Source: a virus
Lineage: Duplodnaviria > Heunggongvirae > Uroviricota > Caudoviricetes
DNA: 5,041 nucleotides
IMG/VR virus record: IMGVR_UViG_2585427777_000011
Coordinates: 1-5,041 of that record
Direction: 5' to 3' (one strand)
A model generated the notes under the pieces. That model was not told the origin of the DNA, ran no database searches, and saw only the letters and a list, made by a program, of their open reading frames with translations. The position numbers and the translations under genes are program-made. Below, piece by piece: positions 223 through 910 of the stretch. How positions within the stretch are numbered: position 1 is the stretch's first letter; every line of letters begins with the position of its first letter.

Positions 223-567
223 ATGACTCAAAACTATGAACTGATTGTGAAAGGGATCCGCAATTTTGAGAATAAAGTTACGGTAACTTTAGCGTTACGG
301 GACAAAAAACGCTTTGACGGTGAAATTTTTGACCTGGACATCTCGCTGGACCGTGTTGAAGGTGCCGCGCTGGAGTTTTATGAGGCAGCAGCCAGAAGGA
401 GCATCAGACAGGTCTTCCTGGATGTTGCTGCCGGGTTATGTGAAGGGGATGAGCAGTCGCCGGAAAAGCGCCCCGTAATTTTAGAGGCGCAGGATGTGTT
501 GATAACCTACAGAGGAAAACTACCGGGAATAATTACGGGTTCTCTGAAGAGTCCGCCGAAATGGTAA
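223..567 (+). CDS. Hypothetical protein (114 aa) between holin and endolysin; position and size match DUF1327 / YdfR-like proteins of Qin-type lysis cassettes
   Basis: ATG at 223 lies 4 nt after the holin stop, with GGGGAGAG (207..214) upstream as Shine-Dalgarno. The product is soluble-looking and charged, with no TMD. The family call rests on recalled gene order (essQ-ydfR-rrrQ in E. coli K-12 Qin), not on recognised sequence. The C-terminal ~12 codons overlap the convergent minus-strand ORF 533..805. Confidence 0.6.
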   Translation: MTQNYELIVKGIRNFENKVTVTLALRDKKRFDGEIFDLDISLDRVEGAALEFYEAAARRSIRQVFLDVAAGLCEGDEQSPEKRPVILEAQDVLITYRGKLPGIITGSLKSPPKW

Positions 568-805
568 TTTTACCAGCATATTTTTCATCCAGTAATACAG
601 CAAGCCGCCTGAAAGAGTCTTGTTGTTCCTGAGACCATTTGGGATTGCATGATTCAAACTGGATTGATGCCAGCGTTGATTGCATCTGTTCCCTTGGAAT
701 TGAGAATGCCAGATATGAGAAGGCGACGGTAAGGGTATTCACGTCTTCCCGAAGCCTGGAAATGCTGTCGAGCAACTCCTGTAGAGAAATGGTGTTATTG
801 TCCAT
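533..805 (-). CDS. Hypothetical small acidic protein (90 aa), opposite-strand moron candidate inside the lysis cassette
   Basis: ATG start (complement of 803..805) is preceded on the minus strand by GAGGA with a 6-nt spacer. The product (MDNNTISLQELLDSISRLREDVNTLTVAF...) has protein-like composition rich in L/E/Q/S/D, with about 13 acidic and 8 basic residues. It lies in a 343-bp gap between the + strand genes whose GC is roughly 45% by hand count against roughly 55% in the endolysin. The competing + strand ORF 639..845 is Ser/Cys-rich with a weaker RBS. Confidence 0.45.
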   Translation of the reverse strand: MDNNTISLQELLDSISRLREDVNTLTVAFSYLAFSIPREQMQSTLASIQFESCNPKWSQEQQDSFRRLAVLLDEKYAGKITISADSSENP

Positions 806-910
806 AAATAATCCTCATGATTGTATTGACCTGTTAGCAGCCTGAGGCAACAGGCTGGAACTGATAAACATATCCAGGGCTCAGAAACCGATAAATCCTG
901 ATAAATATCC

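Follow-up and report, generated by a model that had tools for sequence, protein, structure and literature searches.

The bor and lom genes of phage lambda are late-region morons; they have defined promoters, and the envelope proteins they encode confer known phenotypes. Here we describe a probable moron of a different type, carried by a virus of the class Caudoviricetes (IMG/VR record IMGVR_UViG_2585427777_000011, positions 1 to 5,041; this entire 5,041-nucleotide stretch is referred to below as the window). The window represents the late region of a defective lambdoid prophage of Escherichia coli. The gene in question, open reading frame (ORF) 533..805 on the minus strand, lies between ydfR and the endolysin (phage lysozyme) gene. 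Its 90-amino-acid (aa) product is a full-length member of the phrog_2411/Ybl58 family, from which it shows no difference, and RefSeq, UniProt and PHROGs already list Ybl58 as a hypothetical protein. The combined evidence points to a single-gene moron cargo which probably encodes a small acidic cytoplasmic protein, composed of three helices and a disordered tail.

Anatomy of ORF 533..805 and its family

The following elements define the locus.

533..805, minus strand: Ybl58-family coding sequence, 90 aa, ATG start (WP_000369850.1, phrog_2411)
816..812, minus strand: Shine-Dalgarno (SD) sequence GAGGA, followed by a 6-nt spacer and the ATG at 805..803
533..558, minus strand: C-terminal end of the ORF, last ~8 codons and stop (SADSSENP-stop), antisense to the ydfR 3′ end (..TGSLKSPP)
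223..567, plus strand: ydfR, 114 aa, DUF1327 (PF07041, E=7e-43), convergent with ORF 533..805

A preliminary description, made from the letters of the window alone, had placed a 90-aa ORF with an ATG start and a GAGGA SD sequence on the minus strand at 533..805, and its coordinates and anatomy are correct in every respect. ydfR and the lysozyme gene are 343 bp apart, and 35 bp of the ORF (533..567) fall within ydfR. The lower GC content reported for this gap was also recovered, the difference being modest (43.3% for positions 560-852 versus 47.8% in ydfR, 53.2% in the holin gene and 55.1% in the lysozyme gene). The predicted product has an isoelectric point (pI) of 4.50, a charge of -5.5 and a grand average of hydropathy (GRAVY) of -0.43. 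No hydrophobic stretch of transmembrane (TM) length was found in it, and three helices are predicted, in line with the acidic, helical product without a TM domain that had been proposed. The arrangement of SD sequence and ATG is kept in every E. coli allele compared, including a copy linked to the iha gene. The ydfR flank that templates SADSSENP-stop is also found in alleles devoid of the ORF, and the homologs of Citrobacter and some other bacteria end at about residue 83-85.

In a comparison with the phrog_2411 profile, residues 1-90 of the product aligned with positions 1-90 of 90 (E=1.1e-58); the Citrobacter homolog also matches this profile (E=1.5e-33). The name Ybl58 originates from UniProt, and the RefSeq members of phrog_2411/Ybl58 are WP_000369850.1, WP_000370546.1 and WP_000370415.1. 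There is no Pfam or NCBIfam model for the family. The searchable literature on Ybl58/WP_000369850.1 and on DUF1327/ydfR contained nothing relevant, and a paper on Gifsy GiPD474 was set aside, the protein concerned being an unrelated one with an ATPase domain.

Coding status of the ORF

Six alleles with 70-90% nucleotide identity were compared: those of the window, E. ruysiae, an avian pathogenic E. coli (APEC) strain, phage Chlobot, a Stx2k phage and the iha-linked copy. For codons 1-79 (the 79 codons outside the ydfR overlap) the mean ratio of nonsynonymous to synonymous substitution rates (dN/dS) is 0.23. The minus-strand frame contains zero stops in all six alleles, and its variable columns are distributed 24/17/48 over the first, second and third codon positions. 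Because of this ratio, the lack of stops in any allele and the presence of homologs in other genera, ORF 533..805 is almost certainly a real protein-coding gene, as the preliminary description had claimed.

The length of the ORF is by itself not significant, because a spurious ORF of 169 aa arises antisense to the lysozyme gene in the same window. Such an ORF shows that frames of this length occur here at random, the codon usage of ORF 533..805 is unlike that of the neighbouring genes, and a consensus scan called neither a promoter nor a terminator for it; it could thus be a chance, untranslated frame in a non-coding ydfR-endolysin spacer. We consider this highly improbable in view of the dN/dS of 0.23 in alleles that are all stop-free, the conserved SD sequence and ATG, the confidently predicted fold, and the proteins of 27-40% identity in other genera and unrelated contexts, in which conservation is confined to the ORF.

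The plus-strand ORF 639..845 (68 aa), which is co-directional with late transcription, was also considered as the actual gene of this region. Its apparent dN/dS is 0.18, its frame is open in two alleles and reaches 110 aa in E. ruysiae, and its codon score is close to that of the minus-strand ORF. However, the low dN/dS is a mirror effect, because the third positions of this frame coincide with those of the minus-strand ORF. The plus-strand ORF starts with TTG, belongs to no PHROG or Pfam family, and is interrupted by 1-3 stops in four of six E. coli alleles and by 1-7 stops in the Citrobacter, Atlantibacter, Serratia, Chimaeribacter, Sodalis and metagenomic homologs. The preliminary description had named better coding statistics of this frame as an argument against its own proposal. 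No such advantage was found, the frame being broken by stops in most homologs, and the likelihood that it is the true gene is minimal.

Codon-usage scoring, suggested in the same description for a choice between the two frames, did not tell them apart. When scored against the window's own genes, the minus-strand ORF obtained -0.09 and the plus-strand ORF -0.08 bits per codon, both atypical versus the neighbouring late genes (+0.30 to +0.42). These scores mainly mark the region as compositionally foreign.

An optional module at the ydfR junction

Alignment with empty-site alleles, i.e. those lacking the ORF, delimited an insertion/deletion with the following position.

~559-854: optional module of ~295 bp

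The module contains the last two ydfR codons with the stop (AAATGGTAA), ORF codons 1-82, the SD sequence and ~49 nt of upstream sequence. Collinear cassettes without it occur in O157:H7-type prophages and in the K-12 prophage Qin. In Qin, ydfR (103 aa) overlaps rrrQ by ATGA, while cassettes L003 and L004 encode the same 114-116-aa YdfR with the lysozyme gene only 50-63 bp further and the ORF absent. The comparison with Qin-like cassettes that the preliminary description called for therefore revealed that ydfR overlaps or nearly abuts the endolysin gene when the ORF is missing, and these cassettes substantiate the optional, moron-like insertion it had postulated. The module shows two features of morons: presence or absence among collinear relatives with sharp boundaries, and a composition differing, if modestly, from that of its neighbours (43.3% versus 47.8-55.1% GC, with a negative codon score).

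BLAST searches with the flanks only distinguished several classes of junction by the span between them. A span of 501 bp corresponds to the module described here and spans of 208 or 227 bp to the empty site, while 686 bp indicates another reverse-strand ORF and 662 or 740 bp a long form of YdfR. The other reverse-strand ORF is found at the same junction in strain G8 (L005:1687-1962) and belongs to phrog_18136. It resembles ORF 533..805 in its insertion point (after ..CC[A/G]CCG and before CTGG..), its reverse orientation, its length (91 aa) and the acidity of its product (pI 5.2). In contrast, the two proteins share no detectable sequence similarity and are assigned to different PHROGs, so homology between them was rejected. 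In strains HUSEC2011 (L029) and FDAARGOS_1293 (L030), YdfR runs through the junction and carries a C-terminal domain of 150-185 residues, giving proteins of 268 and 297 aa. These long forms are labeled as truncated pseudogenes by PGAP.

The junction is thus the domain boundary after the DUF1327 module (..ITGSLK.PP), at which lambdoid phages swap alternative segments, and the C-terminal end of ydfR after ..SLKSPP is the recombination junction, or hot spot.

The sequence preceding the lysozyme gene was also compared between alleles with and without the module.

855..910, plus strand: SD-less leader of the lysozyme gene of the signal-arrest-release (SAR) type, common to alleles without the module

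No purine-rich SD sequence was seen upstream of the endolysin ATG at 911, as had been noted before. The proposal that the insertion displaced the original translational context of the endolysin was refuted, since the empty alleles share the SD-less leader: the 40-50 nt before the lysozyme ATG (ACATATCCAGGG...GATAAATCCTGATAAATATCCATG) are identical in ORF-less alleles, and K-12 retains the final 13 nt of this leader before the ATG (ATAAATATCTATG).

Distribution and genomic contexts of Ybl58 genes

Close relatives of the 90-aa protein number 62 and come from Escherichia, Shigella, E. albertii and Citrobacter. A profile search extended the set to 127 relatives, including proteins of 27-40% identity in Serratia, Sodalis, Atlantibacter, Chania, Gibbsiella, Chimaeribacter and Citrobacter. 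The family is nevertheless narrow, comprising 19 clusters in an exhaustive hidden Markov model (HMM) search of 1.8 billion cluster representatives. The exact 90-aa sequence is present on at least 1000 public contigs, and the module is carried by ~1053 of 5426 complete E. coli genomes. Isolated phages with the gene are Chlobot, vB_EcoS-783R2 and phiSTEC1575-Stx2k. A scan of one genome per species found loci only in E. ruysiae and Citrobacter (two).

The contexts of these genes are diverse. In phage phiSTEC1575-Stx2k the gene is located after holin-ydfR and before a second holin pair and an M15 peptidase gene. The Citrobacter homolog is convergent with, and overlaps, a gene encoding a 238-aa protein that has nothing but its ..ITGSLRVPMKL tail in common with YdfR; it is followed by genes for a different holin (PF05106), a CHAP endolysin and Rz. 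In Atlantibacter, a homolog of 41% identity is placed on the reverse strand between tail genes M and L. In E. coli B and E. coli C the gene lies in a prophage remnant bordered by sieB and ydaF at one end and by trkG at the opposite end.

The iha-linked copy (L006:1446-1718) is intact, 90 aa long and 57% identical, and occurs in 60 E. coli genomes, including EC6563 and SMS-3-5. It is separated by ~325 bp from the adhesin/siderophore-receptor gene iha and is surrounded by insertion sequence (IS) remnants. At this locus the start codon of the lysozyme gene is mutated from ATG to ATA, and ydfR is gone except for a recognizable decayed end. Another copy, of 62% identity, follows an AIDA-type autotransporter gene; its flanks are unrelated and conservation extends only from ATG to stop.

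In Serratia and Chimaeribacter an ortholog of 27-36% identity (L014:5001-5282, L018:4001-4279, L019/L020:4001-4270) belongs to the core chromosome, as a monocistron flanked by dinI and bssS (gene order pyrC-dinI-X-bssS-solA), with dinI, including its LexA box and terminator, upstream. This ortholog was found on at least 1000 contigs. In Sodalis and in a metagenomic relative the gene stands alone. DinI and BssS, small stress or regulatory proteins of enterobacteria, are, like the ortholog, of ~80-95 aa and encoded by monocistrons in the same chromosomal neighbourhood, but the likeness is one of category only, without homology: the hhalign probability was below 1% for both, and homology to either was rejected. 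The sequence relationship suggests that the phage gene shares ancestry with this host gene of a stress-related neighbourhood.

The gene is a self-contained unit that moves between contexts and depends neither on YdfR nor on the lysis genes. Its varied contexts, together with its placement against late transcription in phages, amount to the behaviour of a moron. A functional pair formed by YdfR and the ORF was rejected, as each is widely found without the other. Likewise, no conserved adjacent partner of the kind expected for a type II toxin-antitoxin system was found; the neighbours differ everywhere, and in Serratia and Sodalis the gene is monocistronic.

Independently of this, a HicA/HicB toxin-antitoxin pair (Citrobacter meridianamericanus, L009:5087-5770) was observed just upstream, in the direction of late transcription, of the 238-aa gene. 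It constitutes a further accessory module in this Citrobacter late-region neighbourhood.

Most E. coli copies reside between ydfR and the endolysin gene, and those of Citrobacter and the Stx2k phage likewise come after a gene with the same ..ITGSL(K/R) C-terminus, as would be expected if Ybl58 were an accessory lysis regulator (an antiholin-like protein or a modulator of the SAR endolysin) acting as a part of the lysis cassette or of YdfR function. We regard such a role as very unlikely. Recombination within the flank accounts for the common ITGSL tail, YdfR and lysozyme genes widely occur without the ORF, and copies devoid of lysis genes exist in a tail operon, in islands and on Serratia chromosomes. 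With no TM segment, an orientation opposite to that of the cassette and homologs outside lysis cassettes, the ORF also lacks the attributes of holins, antiholins and spanins. PF07041 (DUF1327/YdfR) has no match in it, the only match being to the plus-strand gene 223..567.

Predicted structure and searches for function

An AlphaFold2 model based on a 39-sequence alignment (predicted local distance difference test score, pLDDT, 82.6) folds into three helices (residues 8-35, 38-52 and 59-76), with residues 77-90 left as a disordered tail. The invariant or near-invariant positions are nearly all residues of the hydrophobic core, plus E51. PADLOC, Pfam and NCBIfam contain no family that matches the ORF or is common to its relatives, a PDB sequence search returned no relative, and fold searches gave generic helical bundles only. 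The preliminary description had stated that nothing in the sequence identifies a function, and the sequence, profile and fold searches indeed yielded none. A match to the Mip anti-silencer (NF041858; LUZ24 gp4) was rejected: it reached 13.7 bits over 15 residues of a 46-aa profile with a 50-bit cut-off, any hit appeared in only two of 39 family members, and the corresponding PDB entry 6yse scored E=1.3.

The product is unlikely to be an enzyme, a membrane protein or a DNA binder, because its conserved positions belong mostly to the hydrophobic core, its pI is ~4.5-5.5 and a TM domain is lacking. From these sequence properties it probably acts by binding a protein partner.

The product is small, acidic and helical, and its gene is an optional one at a hot spot, in an accessory prophage position of the kind where defence and counter-defence genes gather. 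Ybl58 might accordingly be an anti-defence or anti-restriction factor (for example a DNA mimic), a class mentioned in the preliminary description, or else a superinfection-exclusion or defence protein. This seems unlikely, as there is no PADLOC hit and no similarity in Pfam, NCBIfam or PDB to ArdA, Ocr or other known families; neither a profile match nor the strongly negative surface and fold of an ArdA/Ocr-type DNA mimic was found. Furthermore, the net charge does not go beyond about -5, a reverse-strand place in the late region is ill-suited to a counter-defence gene injected early, and the Serratia core ortholog beside dinI and bssS better fits host physiology.

Candidate expression signals and proposed role

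Two candidate elements were distinguished upstream of the ORF.

820..825, minus strand: candidate -10-like hexamer TACAAT, 14 nt before the ATG, absent from the calls of the consensus scan
838..857: palindrome CAGCCTG-N6-CAGGCTG, arms partly kept, with changes, in other alleles

The conserved hexamer reads TATAAT in the iha-linked allele and GACAAT in one other allele. On the minus strand the loop of the palindrome, TTGCCT (TTGAAT in other alleles), resembles a -35 element, and the palindrome could be an operator or hairpin. No LexA box was visible by eye upstream of the ORF.

A separate observation concerns many genomes of the sequence type 131 (ST131) group, including L031 (NZ_CP015138.1), in which ISEc52 (IS3 family) is inserted 27-30 nt upstream of the ORF ATG. 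The bases corresponding to window positions 832-835 are duplicated at its junctions, and the insertion site falls between the -10-like hexamer and the palindrome with its -35-like element. The IS separates the putative promoter region from the ORF, and late transcription from the lysozyme gene; the ORF itself remains intact.

The ~295-bp module occupies the hot spot at the end of the ydfR DUF1327 region, with its ORF oriented against Q-dependent late transcription. It brings its own SD sequence and start codon and supplies a new stop codon for ydfR, while the ORF reads out of the module into ydfR antisense, gaining a tail of ~8 residues. Under the moron interpretation, transcription in the lysogen may proceed from a weak promoter of its own, and after induction the convergent late transcription would oppose the ORF. 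The product would act as a small modulator or connector-type protein that binds a protein of the host or the phage.

Several points weigh against this interpretation. The consensus scan identified neither a sigma-70 promoter upstream nor a minus-strand terminator downstream of the ORF, and the best promoter candidate (TTGCCT-19 nt-TACAAT) is poorly spaced and would give a leader just ~10 nt long. No transcript, transcription start site, ribosome-profiling or proteomic evidence for the ORF was found in the searchable literature. Its codon-usage score lies below zero (-0.09 to -0.16 bits per codon). Frameshifted or truncated copies are present in several genomes (P0030, P0037, P0049, P0059 and P0061), from which it follows that the gene is dispensable. 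Finally, the protein-binding mechanism is reached by exclusion, with no partner, fold relative or motif behind it.

As no downstream terminator was found, transcripts of the minus strand would continue into ydfR and the holin gene as antisense RNA, and may thus have an additional cis or antisense role. The module might even act mainly in cis or as RNA, with convergent or antisense transcription damping leaky late and lysis expression in the lysogen and the peptide being secondary. The ORF is convergent with the late operon and overlaps ydfR at its 3′ end, such convergence and overlap with a late-strand gene recur in every phage context, and a conserved palindrome lies upstream. However, the amino-acid sequence is under purifying selection, the Serratia, Sodalis and island homologs stand alone without a convergent partner, and a role confined to RNA would not maintain a protein family at 27-40% identity. 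We therefore judge a predominantly cis-acting module to be quite improbable and retain the protein-coding moron as the preferred interpretation.

A broader, speculative extension of the moron interpretation can be offered tentatively. Ybl58 might be an unrecognized host-modulating family, shared by Serratia-type core chromosomes and the prophages of Escherichia, Citrobacter and Atlantibacter, which has repeatedly been captured on the reverse strand, in lysogen-expressed form, at the ydfR DUF1327-end hot spot. Its product could rewire a stress, SOS or biofilm pathway, or block superinfecting phages, via a specific partner, with expression reciprocal to late transcription.

Taken by itself, the finding is an ordinary moron, already called by annotation pipelines; its value lies in the wide distribution, the Serratia core ortholog and the clean genetics of the hot spot. 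If expressed, the gene would matter in roughly a fifth of complete E. coli genomes, among them E. coli B and E. coli C as well as ST131 and APEC strains, and in an Stx2k phage. Ybl58 offers a cheap and well-defined target for screens of prophage cargo (defence, stress regulation, leakiness of lysis). The ydfR-endolysin junction, with its empty site, two unrelated reverse-strand ORFs and long YdfR C-terminal domain, provides a compact natural example of cassette exchange.

Genetic setting of the window

The neighbouring genes of the lysis region are as follows.

3..218: S21-like class II holin (PF04971, E=9e-33)
911..1444: phage lysozyme with a SAR-like N-terminus (PF00959, E=9e-24)

Many E. 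coli genomes hold prophages 99.9% identical to the window. The gene order in these prophages is nanS-p-like esterase, holin, YdfR, reverse-strand hypothetical protein WP_000369850.1 and lysozyme.

The ~640-bp segment between the lysozyme and Rz genes (window 1445-2086) contains four small ORFs, annotated as hypothetical in RefSeq. Three of them encode hydrophobic TM-like peptides sharing a repeated motif (RALAFAIKWVAVGIAV in one copy). A strong intrinsic-terminator-like hairpin (1535-1567, followed by a T-run) is present on the plus strand of this segment. In L003 and similar empty-type cassettes, an antirepressor-like gene takes the place of the segment.

Further downstream (window 2087-5041), the first 69 residues of Rz are fused, with the reading frame kept, to a tail tip protein resembling lambda J. 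The fusion contains PF03245 at residues 29-68, followed by the Phage-tail_3, Ig_J, Phage_Tail_Tip and Ig_GpJ_C domains. The breakpoint is located at 2295/2296, the match to the intact prophage L001 stopping at 2295, which indicates that a deletion took out the terminase-to-tail genes and left the prophage defective. A search of Rfam across the whole window gave no match at E≤1.

Comparison with lambda morons

ORF 533..805 differs from bor and lom in several respects. Its product is predicted to be a cytoplasmic acidic three-helix protein, the gene overlaps the 3′ end of a neighbouring late gene, its promoter is only a candidate and no terminator was found. In other features it resembles them: each is a single extra gene in or beside a late operon, patchily distributed among collinear lambdoid genomes, atypical in composition and presumed to be expressed in the prophage. 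The likeness is closest for bor, a lysis-region gene that is also oriented against late transcription.

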